Shown piece by piece: positions 4,881-13,401 of a stretch of 20,368 nucleotides of DNA. The notes beneath the pieces are model-generated. The model was not told where the DNA came from, did not search any database, and was given only the letters and a program-made list of their open reading frames with translations. The first letter of the stretch is position 1; the number at the start of each line of letters is the position of its first letter. The stretch is taken from the IMG/VR virus record IMGVR_UViG_2563366803_000006; one strand, 5' to 3'. This DNA comes from a virus (taxonomy: Duplodnaviria; Heunggongvirae; Uroviricota; Caudoviricetes). Position numbers and translations under genes: made by a program.

Positions 4881-5017
4881 AATCTTAACTACAATATGAT
4901 TCATTTTGATGATTGTTTCATAAGGAACAGTGAAGTAAGATCTAAGAGGAGTTAAATTTTATACAGTATAATCATAATATTGCAGCAAGGTGGTTATAAT
5001 TGAAAGAATATTTAGAT

Positions 5018-6475
5018 ATGAATACATCTCATGTAAGAGTTGTTACTCATATGTGTGGGTTCCTGGTTTGGCTCTATAGTCTTTCAATGTTGCCACCAAT
5101 GGTTGTAGCATTGTTTTATAAAGAAAAAAGCCTGTTCGTTTTCTTTATAACTTTCGTTATATTTTTTTGTATTGGTGGCGGAGCGTGGTATACAACTAAG
5201 AAATCTGGCATTCAATTACGTACCCGTGATGGGTTTATTATAATTGTAATGTTTTGGATTTTGTTTTCTGTTATTAGTGCATTCCCTTTATGGATTGACT
5301 CAGAACTTAATTTAACGTTCATTGATGCTCTGTTTGAAGGGGTTTCTGGAATAACAACAACAGGAGCAACTGTAATTGATGATGTTAGTTCATTACCTCG
5401 GGCATATTTGTACTATCGGTCACAGTTAAATTTTATAGGTGGTTTAGGAGTTATTGTTCTGGCGGTTGCTGTATTGCCATTATTGGGTATTGGTGGTGCA
5501 AAGCTTTATCAGTCAGAAATGCCGGGGCCATTTAAGGATGACAAACTCACTCCCCGCCTGGCCGATACGTCACGGACACTGTGGATAACTTATTCTTTAT
5601 TAGGTATTGCTTGTATTGTCTGTTATAGACTTGCAGGAATGCCTTTGTTTGATGCTATTTGTCACGGGATTTCCACAGTTTCGCTTGGTGGTTTCTCAAC
5701 TCATAGCGAGAGTATCGGATATTTTAATAACTATTTGGTTGAGCTGGTGGCTGGTTCTTTTTCCCTGCTATCGGCTTTCAACTTCACTCTTTGGTATATT
5801 GTTATTAGCAGGAAAACGATAAAACCTTTAATCAGAGATATTGAACTTCGTTTCTTTCTGTTAATAGCCTTAGGGGTGATCATTGTTACCTCTTTCCAGG
5901 TCTGGCATATAGGTATGTATGACTTGCATGGAAGTTTTATTCATTCGTTTTTTCTTGCCAGCTCCATGCTCACTGATAATGGTTTAGCTACGCAGGATTA
6001 TGCAAGCTGGCCCACGCACACGATAGTGTTTTTGCTGTTGTCAAGTTTCTTTGGGGGATGTATAGGTTCAACTTGTGGTGGAATTAAGTCACTTCGATTT
6101 CTTATACTTTTCAAACAAAGCAAACACGAGATAAATCAGCTTTCTCATCCCAGAGCGTTGTTGAGTGTAAATGTAGGAGGGAAGATAGTTACAGATCGTG
6201 TAATGAGGTCTGTATGGAGTTTCTTTTTTCTTTATACTCTCTTCACGGTGTTTTTTATACTGGTGTTAAATGGTATGGGATATGATTTTCTTACATCATT
6301 TGCAACAGTGGCTGCATGTATTAATAATATGGGATTAGGTTTTGGGGCTACTGCATCGTCATTCGGAGTGCTTAATGACATTGCAAAATATTTAATGTGC
6401 ATAGCTATGATTCTTGGTCGCCTTGAAATTTATCCTGTTATTATATTGTTTTCAGGTTTTTTTTGGCGCTCCTAA
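5018..6475 (+). CDS. trkG: TrkG/TrkH-family K+ uptake membrane protein (prophage-borne trkG)
   Basis: 485 aa from ATG 5018; multi-pass membrane protein with TrkH-type motifs (GITTTGATV, GIGGAKLYQSEMPGP, GSTCGGIK). Markedly AT-rich coding sequence. Alternative TTG start at 5000 has a better SD (AAGGTGG). Confidence 0.9.
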   Translation: MNTSHVRVVTHMCGFLVWLYSLSMLPPMVVALFYKEKSLFVFFITFVIFFCIGGGAWYTTKKSGIQLRTRDGFIIIVMFWILFSVISAFPLWIDSELNLTFIDALFEGVSGITTTGATVIDDVSSLPRAYLYYRSQLNFIGGLGVIVLAVAVLPLLGIGGAKLYQSEMPGPFKDDKLTPRLADTSRTLWITYSLLGIACIVCYRLAGMPLFDAICHGISTVSLGGFSTHSESIGYFNNYLVELVAGSFSLLSAFNFTLWYIVISRKTIKPLIRDIELRFFLLIALGVIIVTSFQVWHIGMYDLHGSFIHSFFLASSMLTDNGLATQDYASWPTHTIVFLLLSSFFGGCIGSTCGGIKSLRFLILFKQSKHEINQLSHPRALLSVNVGGKIVTDRVMRSVWSFFFLYTLFTVFFILVLNGMGYDFLTSFATVAACINNMGLGFGATASSFGVLNDIAKYLMCIAMILGRLEIYPVIILFSGFFWRS

Positions 6476-6612: not shown

Positions 6613-7404
6613 ATGAGCGAGAAATTAAAGATAGTCTATCGCCCATTACAAGAATTGTCACCGTATGCGCACAACGCCAGGACGCACAGCCCTGAGCAGG
6701 TGGCACAACTGGTAGAAAGTATTAAGCAATTCGGCTGGACTAATCCGGTGCTGATTGACGAAAAGGGCGAAATTATTGCGGGTCACGGTCGTGTTATGGC
6801 GGCTGAAATGCTCAAAATGGATTCTGTTCCGGTCATTGTTCTGTCTGGCCTGACGGATGAGCAGAAAAAGGCGTACCGCCTGGCAGATAATCGCCTGCCG
6901 ATGAATGCTGGCTGGGATGAAGATCTGTTGCGGATGGAGCTGTCGGACCTAATCAATGCTGATTTTGATGTCTCCCTGACAGGCTTCATCCCGACAGAAA
7001 TTGATGAACTGTTGACGGATGTTTTGCCCGGTACAGGAAATGAGGAGGAGCCGTATACGACGAAAATTGATACGCCTGTTTATGAGCCGTCGGGCGGTAA
7101 ACCGGATATCAGTGAACTGTACGACGATACGAAAACGCAGGAGCTGATCAGCCGGATACGTTCGGCTTCCCTTGAGCCTGATATTGAGAAATTCCTCCTG
7201 TGTGCGGCAGAACGTCACACGGTGTTTAATTTCAGCAGAATTGCGGACTATTACGCTCACGCCCCCGCTGAAATTCAGTGTTTTTTCGAGGAGTCGGCGC
7301 TGGTGATCATTGATTATCAGCAGGCTATTGAAAATGGATTTGTCCGGATGACGCAGCGCATGGTGGAGATCATGCATGGTGGTGAGGAGGAGGAATATGC
7401 GTGA
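6613..7404 (+). CDS. ParB-like nuclease (ParB/sulfiredoxin N-terminal) domain protein
   Basis: 263 aa. N-terminal region with ParB-box-like GHGR motif (GEIIAGHGRVMAAEM), acidic C-terminus. SD AAGGA upstream of ATG 6613. Confidence 0.75.
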   Translation: MSEKLKIVYRPLQELSPYAHNARTHSPEQVAQLVESIKQFGWTNPVLIDEKGEIIAGHGRVMAAEMLKMDSVPVIVLSGLTDEQKKAYRLADNRLPMNAGWDEDLLRMELSDLINADFDVSLTGFIPTEIDELLTDVLPGTGNEEEPYTTKIDTPVYEPSGGKPDISELYDDTKTQELISRIRSASLEPDIEKFLLCAAERHTVFNFSRIADYYAHAPAEIQCFFEESALVIIDYQQAIENGFVRMTQRMVEIMHGGEEEEYA

Positions 7405-8329
7405 TGATTTTTGCGCCTTTATTCTGACTCACGGGCGACCGGACAAAGTTCTGACTTACCGGACGTTGCGTCGTGCTGGCTATACCGGGAAAATTTTTAT
7501 CGTTGTTGATGATGAAGATAAGACACGGCATCAGTACATGGCTGAATTTGGTGAACAGGTGCTGGTGTTTTCCAAAACCGATATCGCCAGTCGTTTTGAC
7601 GAAGCCGATAATTTCTGTGACCGCCGCTCAATTTTTTACGCCCGTAATGCCTGTTTCGACCTGGCAAAACTGGTCGGGTGTAAATACTTCATTCAGCTCG
7701 ATGATGATTATCACGAGTTCCAGTTTCGGGTGGATCGCAACTATGACCAGGCCTATTTTCCGATAAGGAAACTGGATGCGATCCTTTCTGAAATGCTGGC
7801 GTACTACGAATCAATACCTGCTCTTTCCATCGCTATGTCGCAGGGCGGGGATTTTCTTGGTGACAATGGCGGCCATGCTTCGTGGGTGAAACGCAAGGCA
7901 ATGAACAGCTTTATCTGTTCGGTTGATCGACCGTTCTCATTCATGGGGCGCATTAACGAGGATGTGAATACGTACACGAATCTCGGTCGCTGTGGTGAAT
8001 TGTTTATGACGATCGGTGCTGTCCAGTTAGGGCAGAAACAGACGCAGAAAAACAGCGGCGGAATGACCGAGCTGTATCTGGATTCCGGAACCTACGTTAA
8101 AAGTTTTTACTCCGTCATGTATGCGCCGTCGTGCGTAAAAATTTCACTGATGGGTGCCAGCCATAAACGCATTCACCATCAGGTCACCTGGAACAACGCT
8201 GCAGTAAAAATCCTTCACGAAAAATACAGGAAGAAGACACCCTGCATATCAATGGGGGTGACAAATGATTCCGTATTCGAAAGTCGAGTCTCTGGCAGCG
8301 TGCCGGATGACTGCACAACAAATCGCTGA
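7397..8329 (+). CDS. Hypothetical protein with GT-A-like nucleotide-sugar transferase signature (DxD-type)
   Basis: ATG 7397 preceded by strong SD GAGGAGGAGGAA and overlapping the ParB-like stop (translational coupling). Alternating beta-strand/acidic pattern (FILTHGRPD, IFIVVDDEDK, YFIQLDDDYHEF). Function inferred only from this pattern. Confidence 0.6.
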   Translation: MRDDFCAFILTHGRPDKVLTYRTLRRAGYTGKIFIVVDDEDKTRHQYMAEFGEQVLVFSKTDIASRFDEADNFCDRRSIFYARNACFDLAKLVGCKYFIQLDDDYHEFQFRVDRNYDQAYFPIRKLDAILSEMLAYYESIPALSIAMSQGGDFLGDNGGHASWVKRKAMNSFICSVDRPFSFMGRINEDVNTYTNLGRCGELFMTIGAVQLGQKQTQKNSGGMTELYLDSGTYVKSFYSVMYAPSCVKISLMGASHKRIHHQVTWNNAAVKILHEKYRKKTPCISMGVTNDSVFESRVSGSVPDDCTTNR

Positions 8330-8516
8330 CGTTCTGGATGTTGATCTGAACCGACTGAAAGAAAATCGGGAAGCAATGACAGATTTTTATGCGGCCATCC
8401 GTAAGGGCAGAGCGAAAGGTGAAGCCGAGTTACGAGCGGCATTGTTTAAGCTTGCCAGAAAAGGGGATGCCTTTGCTCTGCGCGAACTACTCAGGGTGGA
8501 TAAAAATCAGGACTAA
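8307..8516 (+). CDS. Small putative DNA-binding (HTH-like) protein upstream of terS
   Basis: 69 aa MTAQQIADVLDVDLNRLKENRE... helical and basic; start overlaps the upstream gene; stop is 3 nt before the terS ATG and in the same frame. Confidence 0.5.
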   Translation: MTAQQIADVLDVDLNRLKENREAMTDFYAAIRKGRAKGEAELRAALFKLARKGDAFALRELLRVDKNQD

Positions 8517-8519
8517 CTG

Positions 8520-9614
8520 ATGAGCAGACCGGACTGGGGGGCGTTGCAGCAGGAGTATATTGCTGAATACACCCGCTCCGGTATATCTCCGGTGGCATGG
8601 TGTGAAGCAAGGGGACTGAATTACGCAACAGCCCGTCGTTACATCAAAAAAACTCCGAAAAATGCGCAGACAGAAATGCGCAAAACTGCGCAAAAAAGTG
8701 CGCAGAAAAAATCTGCGCAGACTGCACAAAAGCGGAACGAAAAATCTCAGGAAAAAAAGCCAGTATTCGATGCGGGCCTGAATGAGGGCGACGCGGAGGA
8801 ATTTTCGTTCTGTCCCGATGAATTCGGCATTTCTGACCAGCAGGCTAAGTTTGCGATGCTTGTTGCTCAGGGTAAAAAGCCGACAGAGGCGTACCGACTA
8901 GCCGGTTATGAGGGGCAAGGTGCGACAGCTAACAGCAACGCCAGTCGTATGCTTAGAAATGCCAGGGTTTATCGTGCTATCAGCTACTTCCGCAATCAGT
9001 ACCAGAAACGCTATACCGCAGACCTGGATTTACTGGTGAGCCAGTTGATGGTCATTGTCCAGGCCGACCCCAATCAGTTGGCACAATTTCGCCGTGTTAA
9101 CTGCCGTTATTGCTGGGGCGAGAATCATCTCTACCAGTGGCGTGATATTGCAGAATTCGATAAGGCTGCGGCACAGGCCTCCAGAGATGGTAAACCCGAG
9201 CCGGAATATGGAGGCCTCGGCTTTGTTGATAACGCCATACCCAATCCGGATTGCCCGAAGTGCTGCGGTGAGGGAACGGGACAGCTTTATATGGCTGATA
9301 CCACACTGCTTGATGGGGATGCGCGGCAATTATATGCAGGGTCAAAGCTCGGAAAATACGGTGTTGAGATCCTGCTGGAGGATAAGGCTGCCGCCCGGCG
9401 TGAATTGTTGCGTTTGCTTTCTGCTGGCGGGGCATTATGTGCAGATAAGCGGCTACAGGAACTGGAAATTGAACGGCGCAGAATAGAAAACCAGAAGCTG
9501 CACAAAGAGATCGAAACGGTGGAAGATAATGAACATCCCCAGCCTGTGGCGATCAATATTAATGTGGTTGATGCCAGAGTAAGGAGTGATGAAGATGATC
9601 TCTCCGACGCTTAA
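8520..9614 (+). CDS. Terminase small subunit (long form with N-terminal HTH, AQK low-complexity linker, Terminase_2-like core and C-terminal Cys cluster)
   Basis: 364 aa. Core motif AYRLAGYEGQGATANSNASRMLRNARVYRAI typical of small terminase subunits; lies immediately upstream of and overlaps terL; CRYC...CPKCC cysteines at 9102-9266. Confidence 0.7.
   Translation: MSRPDWGALQQEYIAEYTRSGISPVAWCEARGLNYATARRYIKKTPKNAQTEMRKTAQKSAQKKSAQTAQKRNEKSQEKKPVFDAGLNEGDAEEFSFCPDEFGISDQQAKFAMLVAQGKKPTEAYRLAGYEGQGATANSNASRMLRNARVYRAISYFRNQYQKRYTADLDLLVSQLMVIVQADPNQLAQFRRVNCRYCWGENHLYQWRDIAEFDKAAAQASRDGKPEPEYGGLGFVDNAIPNPDCPKCCGEGTGQLYMADTTLLDGDARQLYAGSKLGKYGVEILLEDKAAARRELLRLLSAGGALCADKRLQELEIERRRIENQKLHKEIETVEDNEHPQPVAININVVDARVRSDEDDLSDA
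8663..8728. repeat. Cluster of five TGCGCA hexamers (plus one TGCACA) inside terS
   Basis: Exact TGCGCA at 8663, 8677, 8687, 8699 and 8714, each followed by an A-rich tract; encodes the AQK-repeat linker of TerS. Confidence 0.8.
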
Positions 9615-10896
9615 TGTGCCTCAGGCGCGATTTCTTTCAATGCCCCATAAATTTAAAGCCTATATTGCTGGTTTTGGCTCGGGCAAAACATGGGTTGGGT
9701 GTGGCGGCATATGCAAGGGGATTTGGGAGCATCCAGGTATAAATCAGGGATATTTTGCGCCAACGTATCCCCAAATTCGCGATATTTTTTACCCTACAGT
9801 GGAAGAAGTTGCTGCTGACTGGGGATTGAACGTAAAAATTAATGAGGGAAATAAAGAGGTTCACTTTTATTACGGACGCCAGTATCGGGGAACCACTGTC
9901 TGCAGATCGATGGAGAAGCCACAAACGATCGTCGGTTTCAAAATTGGTAATGCGTTGGTGGATGAACTGGACATTTTGCCGAAGGAAAAAGCCAGAACGG
10001 CGTGGCGCAAGATAATTGCACGTATGCGTTATAAGATTGATGGACTTCGCAACGGTATTGACGTTACAACCACGCCGGAAGGATTCAAATTTGTCTACGA
10101 GCAGTTTGTTAAAGCCGTGCGTGAAAAAACAGAGCTGGCCTCACTGTATGGTCTGGTGCAGGCATCTACTTTCGATAATGAAAAGAACCTGCCAGCAGAT
10201 TACATTCCTTCGCTTCTTGAATCATACCCTCCAGAGCTGATTAAAGCCTATCTTCGAGGACAGTTTACTAACCTGACAAGTGGTACTGTTTACCATCAGT
10301 TTGACCGGAAACTGAATAATTGCGAAGAAGTGGAGCAGCCAGGGGAGCCGATTTATATTGGGATGGATTTTAACGTTGGAAAGATGGCGGGAATCGTCCA
10401 TGTGCTGCGTTTGGGGCTTCCATGTGCGGTAACTGAAATCATCAATGCCTACGATACGCCGGATATGATCCGCATCATTAAAGAACGCTTCTGGCTGTAT
10501 GATGGGAATGATTACCGGAAAGTGAGGGAAATTTATATTTATCCAGATGCTTCCGGGGACTCCAGAAAATCAAGTAACGCAAGTACGACGGATATAGCCC
10601 AGCTTAAGCAGGCTGGTTTTAACGTTGTGGTGAACAGCTCGAACCCGCCAGTAAAAGATCGCGTTAACTCAATGAATGCAATGTTCTGCAATGCCAATGG
10701 TGAGCGTCGCTATAAAGTTAATGTGAAGCGTTGCCCGTTATATGCCGAATCTCTGGAGCAACAGGTCTGGGATGAGAAGGGGGAGCCTGATAAAAAATCT
10801 GGCAATGATCACCCGAATGATGCCGGAGGTTATTTCATCGTTAAGCAATTCCCTATTGTCAAACCGACCGGAAGAGTCACATCACTTCGGATTTAA
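9595..10896 (+). CDS. Terminase large subunit
   Basis: Walker A-like YIAGFGSGKTW near the N-terminus; C-terminal nuclease-like region; SD AAGGAG (9581-9586) 8 nt before ATG 9595. In-frame alternatives at GTG 9586 and ATG 9589. Confidence 0.9.
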   Translation: MISPTLNVPQARFLSMPHKFKAYIAGFGSGKTWVGCGGICKGIWEHPGINQGYFAPTYPQIRDIFYPTVEEVAADWGLNVKINEGNKEVHFYYGRQYRGTTVCRSMEKPQTIVGFKIGNALVDELDILPKEKARTAWRKIIARMRYKIDGLRNGIDVTTTPEGFKFVYEQFVKAVREKTELASLYGLVQASTFDNEKNLPADYIPSLLESYPPELIKAYLRGQFTNLTSGTVYHQFDRKLNNCEEVEQPGEPIYIGMDFNVGKMAGIVHVLRLGLPCAVTEIINAYDTPDMIRIIKERFWLYDGNDYRKVREIYIYPDASGDSRKSSNASTTDIAQLKQAGFNVVVNSSNPPVKDRVNSMNAMFCNANGERRYKVNVKRCPLYAESLEQQVWDEKGEPDKKSGNDHPNDAGGYFIVKQFPIVKPTGRVTSLRI

Positions 10897-10898
10897 TT

Positions 10899-12305
10899 AT
10901 GGCTGATATATCAACACCCAACCTCGACTATAACGATATGCTGGAGGCGTGGGATATTAACGACGCACTGATGGGCGGTACGCTTGAAATGCGCAGGCAG
11001 GGGGAAAATTATCTCCCAAAATGGCCTAACGAAGATGAAGACGCTTATAAAAAACGCCTGTCTGTGGCTACGCTACTTCCTGTGTATGAAGAAAGCATCA
11101 AGCAAAATATTGGGCGCATATTTGCAGAGCCGACAGTATTGAGTGAGGAAACGCCGGCAAAAATCAGGGAATATGCAGAAAATATCGACATGGAGGGGAG
11201 CCGACTGGATGTGTGGGCGCAGCAATTTTTCAGCCTCGCATTTCAGTATGGTGTGGCACATGCGCTGGTGGACTATCCACGAACGGATATGAAAGAGATT
11301 CGGACAAAAGCCGATGAAAACGCGACCGGTGGTCGTCCGTACGTTACGATGCTGAATCCACGCCAGGTTATTGGATGGAAATCGAAAGTTGAAAAAGGGA
11401 AAGTTGTTCTCACTGATTTGCGTATAAAAGAGGTCATCATTATTGATGGTGATGATTTCGGGCAGAAGAAGGTGGAGCAGATCCGCCATATTATGCCCCG
11501 TCGAGTTGAAATTTATCGACGTAGCGAAGGCACTAATGGCGAATCTGTCTGGACGCTTCATGAGTCATGGAATACCAGCCGTGATGATATTCCTCTGGTA
11601 ACACTGTACACGAAGAAAACAGGATTTATGCGTGGTACACCGCCATTGCTTAATCTTGGCTTGCTGAATATCAAGCACTGGCAAAGCCAGAGCGAGCAGG
11701 ACAATATTCTTCATGTTGCCCGCGTTCCATTGCTGGTGGCCTACGGGCTGGACAGGAATGAAGAACTGACGGTTGGTGCATCCACCGCTACGATTTTTGA
11801 GGACAGAACAAAAAATGGCCTCGAATATGTTGAACATAGTGGCGCAGCGATAGAATCTGGCGAAACATCACTTGAGAAGCTGGAAAATCAGATGCGTCAT
11901 GCCGGCGCTAAACTTCTGCGTGCTGAAAATACATCCACCAAATCTGTTGATCAGACTAATGAAGAGCGAATGCAGGAAAACTCGCCGCTTTATACAATGG
12001 CGAACTCCCTCGAAGATGCCCTCGATAATATTCTCCAGATAATGGCGGAATGGATCGGAGAGAGTTGCGGTGGCAATGTGGATGTGCGCACTGAACTGGA
12101 TGTATCTGCCCAGGTGTTTGACTCATCCTCCGCGCTGGCTGTTCAGTCATTGCGTCAGGGCGGTGATATACGTCAGATTGATGCGGTTCGGGTGTTGCAG
12201 GCGTTGAAATTTATCGATCAGGATTCCCGTCCAGAGGAAGTGATCGATGAATTAAAAAATCAGAGTGTAATGCTGATGGAAATCAATGATGCAAACCGTG
12301 AATGA
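10899..12305 (+). CDS. Portal protein
   Basis: 468 aa, directly downstream of terL; size and position in the terS-terL-portal order typical of portal proteins. Confidence 0.8.
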   Translation: MADISTPNLDYNDMLEAWDINDALMGGTLEMRRQGENYLPKWPNEDEDAYKKRLSVATLLPVYEESIKQNIGRIFAEPTVLSEETPAKIREYAENIDMEGSRLDVWAQQFFSLAFQYGVAHALVDYPRTDMKEIRTKADENATGGRPYVTMLNPRQVIGWKSKVEKGKVVLTDLRIKEVIIIDGDDFGQKKVEQIRHIMPRRVEIYRRSEGTNGESVWTLHESWNTSRDDIPLVTLYTKKTGFMRGTPPLLNLGLLNIKHWQSQSEQDNILHVARVPLLVAYGLDRNEELTVGASTATIFEDRTKNGLEYVEHSGAAIESGETSLEKLENQMRHAGAKLLRAENTSTKSVDQTNEERMQENSPLYTMANSLEDALDNILQIMAEWIGESCGGNVDVRTELDVSAQVFDSSSALAVQSLRQGGDIRQIDAVRVLQALKFIDQDSRPEEVIDELKNQSVMLMEINDANRE

Positions 12306-13401
12306 ACGGCTGCGTGATGAATCAATTGCTCATGCAGTCTGGATATCCCGCTATAGCACTGGCGTGGCTGCCAGAATGGTGAAAATACTGAATGACAGCG
12401 ATGCGGAACTTACTGCTCGCCTGCTGATAGCACTGGACAGCCTCGATCCAGGTAGTTTTACCGTTAAGCGCCTGGAGTCACTTCTGGCGAGCGTCAGAGA
12501 GGTTAACCGCACTGCTATTAACAGCATGTTTACCAGTCTCTCCGGAGAGCTGAACGAGCTGGCAATTTATGAGGCTGGTTATCAGTTAAGTCTGTTTGAT
12601 TCTATGCTACCTGATTTTGTTGCTGATGTTCACCCTCTGGTTGGTATCTCTCCTGATGCACTTTATGCCGCTGCAATGGCGCGACCATTCCAGGGACGAC
12701 TGCTCAGTGAGTGGGCCTCAGATCTTGAGGCGGATCGGCTCAGACGCATAACAAATACAGTGCGTCAGGGTTTTTTGCTGGGGGATACCAATGAGCAGAT
12801 CGCAAGAAAAATTCGGGGACATGTCAGTAAGGGATTTCAGGATGGTGCATTGCAGATGAGCCGGGCTAATGCGGCCAGCATTGCAAAAACAGCGGTTGGA
12901 CATCTTGCTGCTACTGCCCGTGAGAGTTTTGCCAGCGCGAATAATGATTTGATTAAGGGTAAGCAATGGTTATCAACGCTTGATAATCGTACTACGCCAC
13001 AATGTCGAATCAGGGATCGCCTCAAATATACGCTGAATAATAAACCTGTAGGTCACAGCGTGCCTTATTTGCAGGGGCCGGGAAAAATTCATTTCTGCTG
13101 CCGCTCAACGGAAACGTTCATTCTGAAATCAGCGAAGGAACTGGGTATTGATGTTCGCGATATTTCCCCGGCTGAGCGGGCCAGCATGGATGGCGTGGTG
13201 GCCGGAGATACAACCTACAGGGAATGGTTTTTGCGTCAGCCTTACACCAGACAAAAACAGATTGTGGGGGAAACCCGAGCAAAGCTGATTCGGGATGGTG
13301 GTATGTCGCCAGATGAATTTTACACCGATAAAGGCGAATGGCTGACGCTGAAGCAGCTCCGTGAGCGTGATGCACAGGTATTCAGAAAAGCAGGGATTTA
13401 A
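12286..13401 (+). CDS. Head morphogenesis / minor head protein (SPP1 gp7 / Mu F-like position)
   Basis: 371 aa, overlaps the portal 3' end by 20 nt; called mainly from gene order (portal, then minor head protein, then scaffold, then capsid). Confidence 0.55.
   Translation: MMQTVNERLRDESIAHAVWISRYSTGVAARMVKILNDSDAELTARLLIALDSLDPGSFTVKRLESLLASVREVNRTAINSMFTSLSGELNELAIYEAGYQLSLFDSMLPDFVADVHPLVGISPDALYAAAMARPFQGRLLSEWASDLEADRLRRITNTVRQGFLLGDTNEQIARKIRGHVSKGFQDGALQMSRANAASIAKTAVGHLAATARESFASANNDLIKGKQWLSTLDNRTTPQCRIRDRLKYTLNNKPVGHSVPYLQGPGKIHFCCRSTETFILKSAKELGIDVRDISPAERASMDGVVAGDTTYREWFLRQPYTRQKQIVGETRAKLIRDGGMSPDEFYTDKGEWLTLKQLRERDAQVFRKAGI

Follow-up and report, generated by a model that had tools for sequence, protein, structure and literature searches.

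A conserved four-cysteine insertion within the Terminase_2 core of an Escherichia coli prophage small terminase, with a predicted structural role

Small terminases select the DNA that a phage packages and hence govern generalised transduction. Those of the SF6/SPP1 G1P type form ring oligomers, usually nonamers, which bind pac DNA and stimulate the ATPase of the large terminase (TerL). The question raised by a 20,368-nucleotide stretch of tailed-phage DNA (IMG/VR record IMGVR_UViG_2563366803_000006; hereafter the window) is why its small terminase (TerS) reaches 364 amino acids (aa), and what role is played by two pairs of cysteines near its middle. A preliminary description, made from the sequence alone, had read these cysteines as a zinc-ribbon-like site downstream of the small-terminase core and had proposed an extra DNA-binding or oligomerisation module. 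We find that the internal four-cysteine (Cys4) cluster is real, far from chance expectation and invariant in all intact homologues; it lies inside the oligomerisation core, where its role is probably structural.

The open reading frame (ORF) at 8520-9614 encodes a Terminase_2 (SF6 G1P-type) small terminase. We base this identification on a Terminase_2 (PF03592) match above the curated cut-off (aa 122-316, E 3.5e-8, 34.6 bits against 26.1), a match to phrog_51 'terminase small subunit' with E 8e-76, and the presence of TerL and portal genes immediately downstream. The gene, terS, lies directly upstream of terL, and the portal gene (DUF4055) is the next one downstream; proteins 98% identical to the product carry the NCBI name terminase small subunit. 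As a gene, terS is ordinary, abundant and already correctly annotated: it is present in 896 of 5426 complete E. coli genomes, nearly all at 90-99.8% nucleotide identity, and the annotation among the matches listed is 'terminase small subunit'. Overlapping ORFs on both strands within 9030-9486 were taken as spurious because the conserved frame is that of terS.

According to the translation, the cysteines of TerS fall at aa 28, 98, 195, 198, 245, 248, 249 and 307. Nucleotides 9102-9266 correspond exactly to aa 195-249, which begin with CRYC and end with CPKCC, and 46 residues separate the CxxC pairs. At least two CxxC motifs arose in just 0.85% of 200,000 shuffles of TerS, and this result, together with the invariance of the cysteines, rejects a chance origin of the two pairs. 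To collect homologues, we searched aa 100-330 with HMMER exhaustively against 1.84 billion cluster representatives at 50% identity, which returned 1636 clusters at E <=1e-3 and 1208 at E <=1e-10; typical homologues are about 250 aa long and 31-54% identical to the window protein.

Conservation among homologues, the check that had been set beforehand, distinguishes four cysteines from the rest. In a MAFFT alignment of the 149 best representatives from this search, C195 and C198 occur in 148 sequences, C245 in 138 and C248 in 140. The single sequence without C195 and C198 is a 75-aa fragment, and all 11 apparent exceptions to the Cys4 pattern are truncated, frameshifted or chimeric database entries that are near-identical to the window TerS up to the break point, so that the set is complete in all of the roughly 140 intact cluster representatives. 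Three curated alignments, of 56, 91 and 38 sequences, show all four cysteines without exception; the members of the first two are 26-61% identical to the window TerS. Five glycines (G200, G231, G232, G250 and G252) are invariant in homologues as well. C28, C98 and C307 are not conserved among the 149 representatives, and C249, a cysteine in only 16 of them, is conserved only in close relatives. Both CxxC pairs of the preliminary description are upheld, but the last residue of CPKCC is not part of the pattern: on the alignments, C195, C198, C245 and C248 form the real conserved set and the fifth cysteine is incidental. The family motif can be written as ADPNEL..RR.NCR.CWG..H.YQW...E...A...(variable loop)...P...GG.GF.....PNPDCP.C.GEG......DT..L., with a spacing of 46-47 residues between the CxxC pairs in most members and indels limited to one loop. 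Some relatives in the databases are chimeric or mis-annotated (P0006, P0033, P0035, P0274); the chimeric TerS entries include a 616-aa TerS-tail-fibre fusion and 565-aa fusions of a TET-associated glycosyltransferase (TAGT) to TerS, and a 163-aa frameshifted TerS fragment carries the database name 'nudix hydrolase'.

Contrary to the first description, the cluster is not located downstream of the small-terminase core. The Terminase_2 match spans aa 122-316, with 195 TerS residues aligned to only 111 profile positions, and a profile of the family matches the TerS of Bacillus phage SF6 (3zqp, E 6e-17) in two stretches that are split around the cluster. Profile positions 14-96 align to SF6 chain 20-101, comprising the helix-turn-helix (HTH) and first core helix, and positions 193-229 align to chain 117-153, comprising the strand and second core helix; about 97 profile positions stand where SF6 TerS has about 16 residues. 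The split match and this difference in length identify the Cys4 module as an insertion within the oligomerisation core. The core is therefore not a contiguous compact unit directly after the DNA-binding domain (DBD) but is divided by the insertion. Judged from these alignments, about 80-95 residues have been inserted inside the Terminase_2 domain, both halves of the core are kept and family membership holds. An extra module is thus present as proposed, although as an insertion and not as a C-terminal add-on. The charged coiled-coil tail of the preliminary description is also partly core: it comprises the second Terminase_2 core helix, up to about aa 316, and then continues as a variable helix and a disordered acidic tail. 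The HTH itself aligns to the SF6 DBD by the family profile in three structures (3zqp E 6e-17, 4zc3 E 1e-10, 2cmp E 7.5e-10) and also to Pam5 TerS, and Foldseek matches the modelled HTH to the SF6 DBD (TMt 0.73) and to PaP3 TerS (rank 1, TMt 0.44).

The description of TerS as unusually long is fair, since solved Terminase_2-type chains have 134-164 aa and the median of the Cys4 subfamily is 259 aa. Three parts account for the additional length: about 100 aa at the N-terminus, made up of an HTH and a linker, then the Cys4 insert, and finally a C-terminal helix and tail that are longer and mosaic. An N-terminal extension of at least 80 aa occurs in only 21 of 132 representatives. Its first domain, aa 1-45, matches the N-terminus of a phrog_370 TerS, and aa 11-55 weakly match an IS66 TnpA-like HTH model of NCBIfam (E 2.3e-4, below cut-off). 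At the other end, 84 residues follow G281 in the window protein, compared with a median of 63. Direct repeats of 15-31 nucleotides at 8645-8721 (plus strand; AAAAAAGTGCGCAGA-like) encode a reiterated K-[ST]-AQK peptide of the linker, which is among the more variable parts between alleles; homologue lengths are 349-365 aa.

We predicted the structure of the TerS monomer with AlphaFold2 (AF2) from the 56-sequence alignment. The model is confident and compact where it matters here, with a mean predicted local distance difference test score (pLDDT) of 86.8 overall; within aa 100-300 the score is 95-98, and the domain aa 180-299 modelled in isolation has 95.8. The N-terminal domain consists of helices 6-20, 24-30 and 35-38 (pLDDT 89-96), and the linker is modelled as one helix (47-76) followed by disorder (77-87, pLDDT <50). 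HTH helices at 106-146 lead into a long helix at 148-181 (pLDDT 86-98). The module is then built from strand 188-193, the first knuckle, helix 210-222, the second knuckle and strand 253-258; in sequence its order is strand, CxxC knuckle, YQW, helix, variable loop, GGxGF, PNPD, CPxCxGxG knuckle and strand. Both CxxC knuckles directly adjoin beta-strands (188-193 and 253-258 by DSSP, pLDDT 98), as in ribbon-type knuckles. Beyond the module, the chain forms a hairpin (272-278 and 281-286), helix 289-336 and a disordered acidic tail (pLDDT <55). When the whole model was compared with the PDB by Foldseek, we obtained only weak matches to TerS HTHs (E 0.3 or worse) and none for the insert.

Searches for a known metal-site family gave resemblance without membership. 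A Pfam scan of the Cys segment, the N-terminal domain and the tail at E up to 10 produced nothing meaningful, and the zinc-ribbon profile search suggested at the outset yielded no match on the window Cys segment at that threshold. When 38 homologous modules were scanned singly, 26 matched DnaJ_CXXCXGXG (best E 1.6e-4, to single short segments), 15 matched the rubredoxin-like zf-ChsH2 and 13 matched Anti-TRAP, all below threshold; Zn_ribbon_8 and similar models gave sub-threshold matches to homologous modules only. A PDB profile search with the module returned mostly zinc-knuckle proteins at non-significant scores (anti-TRAP E 0.19, DnaJ E 1.5, UvrA), and the alignments shown fall on the CP.C.G.G knuckle. 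We found no dedicated Pfam or NCBIfam model for the module. The likeness to the DnaJ Cys-rich domain and anti-TRAP (PF00684, PF15777; 1EXK, 3LCZ) arises from the second knuckle, CPKCCGEG, which fits CXXCXGXG; it is limited to about 15 residues and sub-threshold, and the window segment itself gives no match. DnaJ has paired CXXCXGXG motifs, whereas the first knuckle in the window, CRYCWGEN, is CxxCxG only, and the 46-residue spacer with its helix and GGxGF has neither a DnaJ counterpart nor a fold match. The proposed zinc-ribbon-like site therefore stands at the level of the motif but not of the family: by these comparisons, the module resembles zinc knuckles, weakly but consistently, and matches no known zinc-ribbon family.

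Charge and variability along the protein differ sharply between its parts. The Cys4 module is net negative in 79% of homologues (median -3; -4 in the window TerS), while the HTH is basic (median +3) and the tail has a net charge of -5. For 104 close alleles of full length, identity to the window TerS averages 99.1% over the module, 82.6% over the HTH, 67.9% over the C-terminal helix and 43.5% over the tail; over the linker it is 83%, with 15% of alleles below 70%. The same order is found among 130 distant representatives (47%, 28.5%, 12.7% and 2.4% for module, HTH, C-terminal helix and tail), so that the module is the best-conserved region of TerS in close alleles and distant representatives alike. 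R191, R192 and R196, which flank the first knuckle, are nearly invariant. The terS alleles of a large E. coli/Salmonella group (e.g. P0047, P0096) are mosaic in the parts equivalent to window 9420-9611 and 8880-8970 (plus strand). P0047-type alleles are about 100% identical through aa 270 and 30-50% identical after aa 300, i.e. over the last ~60 aa, and some mosaic alleles carry a divergent HTH block at aa 121-150. These patterns suggest modular exchange of TerL-binding and DNA-recognition segments among alleles: the segments expected to set DNA and TerL specificity are mosaic, and the Cys module is constant. The assignment of a TerL contact to the C-terminus of TerS is based on work on P22 and Sf6, as cited in PMC7672466, and by analogy aa 317-364 may be the TerL-contact region in the window protein.

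How these observations are best explained depends on what the cysteines bind and what the inserted domain does. Four invariant cysteines in two CxxC pairs of a cytoplasmic protein most often form a structural Zn(Cys)4 site. We consider it probable, though by no means settled, that the module serves as a structural domain of the TerS ring core, stapled by a Zn(Cys)4 site, and is not a sequence-specific reader of pac. The insertion sits between the first long core helix and the beta-strand and second core helix, and C195, C198, C245 and C248 are predicted to form two CxxC knuckles at its base, each beside a beta-strand. In this arrangement the four cysteines would lie close together and most likely bind a single structural metal ion, probably Zn2+, which would tie the insert into a compact domain. 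As a structural part of the ring, the insert would contribute one extra domain per subunit and would serve an essential function throughout the subfamily, in ring assembly or stability or as a conserved protein-protein surface, while the basic HTH or HTHs would remain responsible for pac recognition and the variable C-terminal tail for TerL specificity. Several points weigh against this explanation: no solved zinc ribbon, zinc-binding fold or other PDB fold matches the module model; no zinc-ribbon or DnaJ profile is significant or above its curated cut-off on the window TerS; R191, R192 and R196 could make a local DNA- or phosphate-binding patch despite the acidity of the module, or touch a neighbouring subunit; and high conservation fits any essential role, including a conserved contact to TerL or the portal.

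The same arginines, beside the first knuckle, belong to the case for an additional DNA-binding zinc ribbon that helps TerS to recognise or wrap pac DNA, as does the fact that many zinc ribbons bind nucleic acid. Set against this are the net acidity of the module, the canonical HTH and second HTH-like domain that TerS already has, and the lack of a match to any DNA-binding zinc-ribbon family; moreover, the module is near-constant where the HTH regions differ, which is unexpected of a specificity determinant. A parallel in its favour comes from the herpesvirus TerS-like proteins pUL28 of herpes simplex virus 1 and pUL56 of human cytomegalovirus, which carry zinc fingers, the one in pUL56 being linked to a DNA-binding function (PMC9611059). 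Those proteins and the window TerS share cysteine-based sites (zinc in the herpesviruses, predicted here) in the accessory DNA-recognition subunit of a terminase, but pUL28 and pUL56 are about 85 kDa, all-helical and unrelated in sequence and architecture, so that the comparison is an analogy only. We regard a DNA-binding ribbon as unlikely. Acidity, conservation and position in the ring core favour a generic essential structural role over sequence-specific DNA recognition, and of the two functions proposed in the preliminary description, DNA binding is disfavoured in the least variable and acidic part of the protein, while a structural or oligomerisation role is favoured by its position. A somewhat better, though still rather poor, chance attaches to the module as a conserved surface on which another packaging component docks, for instance the ATPase domain of TerL or the portal, with the metal only shaping that surface. 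This shares the structural metal with the Zn(Cys)4-stapled domain preferred above and differs from it only in downstream function; an acidic, highly conserved surface suits a protein-protein interface, and an insertion in the ring core would present it once per subunit. However, the TerL-proximal tail is swapped among close alleles while the module is constant, which suggests that TerL specificity lies in the tail, and in Bcep22 the TerS and TerL genes are about 3 kb apart with small genes between them. It is very improbable that the cysteines form a redox-active element sensing the state of the cell, whether through disulfides, a rubredoxin-like Fe(Cys)4 site or an Fe-S centre. The CxxC...CPxC pattern with its following glycines is also that of rubredoxin, and the 15 weak zf-ChsH2 matches among the 38 modules point the same way, but no rubredoxin profile is significant, the CxxCxxC pattern of [4Fe-4S] sites is absent, stable disulfides are unlikely in a cytoplasmic protein and no redox partners are evident nearby.

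Comparison with solved and related small terminases places the insert in context. SF6/SPP1 G1P (3ZQP/3ZQQ, 4ZC3, 2CMP) is of the same Pfam family as the window TerS, is likewise encoded upstream of the large terminase gene and has a homologous HTH, first core helix (chain 20-101) and second core segment (117-153). The SF6 protein has only about 145 aa and no cysteine cluster, whereas the window TerS has in addition the insert, an HTH-like domain plus linker at its N-terminus and, at its C-terminus, a longer helical stretch. The TerS proteins of Pseudomonas phages PaP3 and NV1 (6W7T, 7JOQ) and of Pam5 (21di) share the architecture of an HTH and helical hairpin, but they have 134-157 aa and lack the Cys4 insert. 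In PaP3 TerS, a beta-barrel strand follows directly after the helical hairpin, and an acidic disordered C-terminal tail resembles that of the window protein (PMC7672466). Closer in kind are the TerS proteins of Pseudomonas phage F116 (gp38) and of Burkholderia phages Bcep22 (gp36), BcepIL02, BcepB1A and DC1, which are members of the same Cys4 subfamily. Those of F116 and Bcep22 are 31-34% identical to the window TerS and keep all four cysteines as well as the GGxGF and PNPxCPxCxGxG motifs, and F116 has the gene order TerS-TerL-portal of the window. Proteins of this group are about 260-270 aa long, without the N-terminal HTH-like domain and Lys/Gln-rich linker of the window protein. We found no structure or biochemistry for their cysteine module.

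The module is widespread among phages. By tblastn, it occurs in 67 phage records whose named hosts are all Proteobacteria, including phages F116, Bcep22, BcepIL02, BcepB1A, BcepC6B, DC1 and Erwinia phage PEp14 as well as phages of Klebsiella, Yersinia and Serratia. In the annotated records listed, with two exceptions, the module lies under a TerS gene or under a hypothetical protein at the place of TerS. A profile search with the module alone against a 5.8-billion-protein set found no occurrence outside TerS, the word-index search being weak for an 82-aa profile; its 8 matches are all TerS fragments, pseudogene remnants or chimeras, one of them misnamed 'nudix hydrolase'. In the full-text literature, we found no description of a Cys4 module in a tailed-phage TerS, with zinc sites described only for herpesvirus pUL28 and pUL56. 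The coordinates of the features of terS and of terL are collected in Table 1.

Table 1. Features of the small terminase gene and its neighbour terL, in window coordinates
Feature	Coordinates	Strand	Basis or remark
terS, 364-aa small terminase subunit	8520..9614, stop codon included	+	ORF list, translation, Pfam, phrog_51
Extra N-terminal HTH-like helical domain, aa 1-45	8520..8654	+	AF2 helices, phrog_370
Lys/Gln/Ala-rich linker, aa 46-100	8655..8819	+	AF2; short direct repeats in the DNA encode part of it
Terminase_2 helix-turn-helix DNA-binding domain, aa 104-147	8829..8960	+	Profile match to SF6 DBD
First long core helix, aa 148-182, joins HTH to oligomerisation core	8961..9065	+	AF2; SF6 alignment
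Cys4 insertion module, aa 183-262	9066..9305	+	Profile alignments, invariant residues, AF2
First knuckle, C195-R-Y-C198	9102..9113	+	148/149 representatives; R196 98% conserved
Second knuckle, C245-P-K-C248, then C249 and G-E-G motif	9252..9263	+	Invariant in intact homologues
Beta-hairpin and second core helix of Terminase_2, aa 263-316	9306..9467	+	AF2; aligns with SF6 chain 117-153
Variable C-terminal helix extension and disordered acidic tail, aa 317-364	9468..9611	+	AF2, allele identity
terL, large terminase	9586..10896	+	Pfam Terminase_6N E 1.1e-32, Terminase_6C E 3.4e-10

The window is part of a Rac-like lambdoid prophage of E. coli whose head genes are P22-like. Its genes include an integrase, IS1, a lysis cassette, TrkH/TrkG, a ParB_N protein, the TAGT glycosyltransferase, TerS, TerL, the portal, a Mu-F-like protein, a scaffold and a P22-like coat protein. 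A tyrosine integrase on the minus strand (1-930) adjoins an IS1 transposase ORF (1215-1718), and the early/regulatory region seems to be missing or replaced when compared with related phages such as vB_EcoS-666R9, pointing to a prophage that has been rearranged or degraded. A TrkH/TrkG potassium-uptake gene (5000-6475, plus strand; Pfam E 3.8e-144) follows the lysis cassette and precedes the packaging genes, an arrangement shared with the Rac prophage; it is cargo within the late operon region. Directly in front of the terminase genes (6613-8329, plus strand), the gene for a ParB_N-domain protein (6613-7404, plus strand; Pfam E 1.2e-6) overlaps the TAGT gene (7376-8329; PF20691, E 3.3e-35; phrog_842 'beta-glucosyl-HMC-alpha-glucosyltransferase'). 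This pair has the appearance of a DNA-modification module; we saw no TET/JBP gene in the window.

Between the TAGT gene and terS lies a small ORF (8265-8516, plus strand) of 69-83 aa, for which related phages have 8307 as the annotated start. Its product aligns with the middle of phrog_309 'terminase small subunit' (E 8e-23), has no Pfam match and may be an accessory HTH-type packaging or regulatory protein. The idea that this 83-aa ORF is a duplicated TerS N-terminus was rejected, as the two have zero similarity. At its other end, terS overlaps terL by 20-29 nucleotides (window 9586-9614), with an AAGGAG Shine-Dalgarno sequence within the end of terS, which fits translational coupling. The start of terL is probably the ATG at 9595 rather than the GTG at 9586; in phage vB_EcoS-666R9, terL is annotated from the ATG equivalent to window 9595. 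Further downstream, a Mu-F-like head morphogenesis protein is encoded at 12286-13401 (plus strand; PF04233, E 1.3e-8), whose counterpart is labelled 'NAD+--asparagine ADP-ribosyltransferase' in related phage records.

In summary, the protein is of a known kind, and its Cys4 module is a variant architecture not previously characterised. Every solved phage TerS that matches the Cys4 family here is a small ring of 134-164-aa chains without a cysteine cluster, and the element most conserved within the subfamily is a ring-core insert for which the PDB offers no structural precedent. The subfamily is large, with at least 1,208 clusters (50% identity, E <=1e-10), and includes the transducing phage F116 and the Burkholderia Bcep phages; a prophage with a Cys4-type TerS is found in about one in six complete E. 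coli genomes. In a more far-reaching version, which we hold to be improbable, the insert is an undescribed metal-stapled fold with no PDB counterpart that adds an extra crown to the ring and is the conserved part on which the working of a large TerS subfamily turns, for instance as a switch or docking platform linking the recognition of pac to the activation of TerL. Were this metal-stapled crown true, it would make these proteins the first tailed-phage TerS known to depend on zinc, in parallel to herpesvirus pUL28 and pUL56. Should the insert bind zinc and shape the ring, this would widen the range of structures known for TerS, and cysteine mutants or chelators would offer a simple handle on ring assembly and the initiation of packaging.

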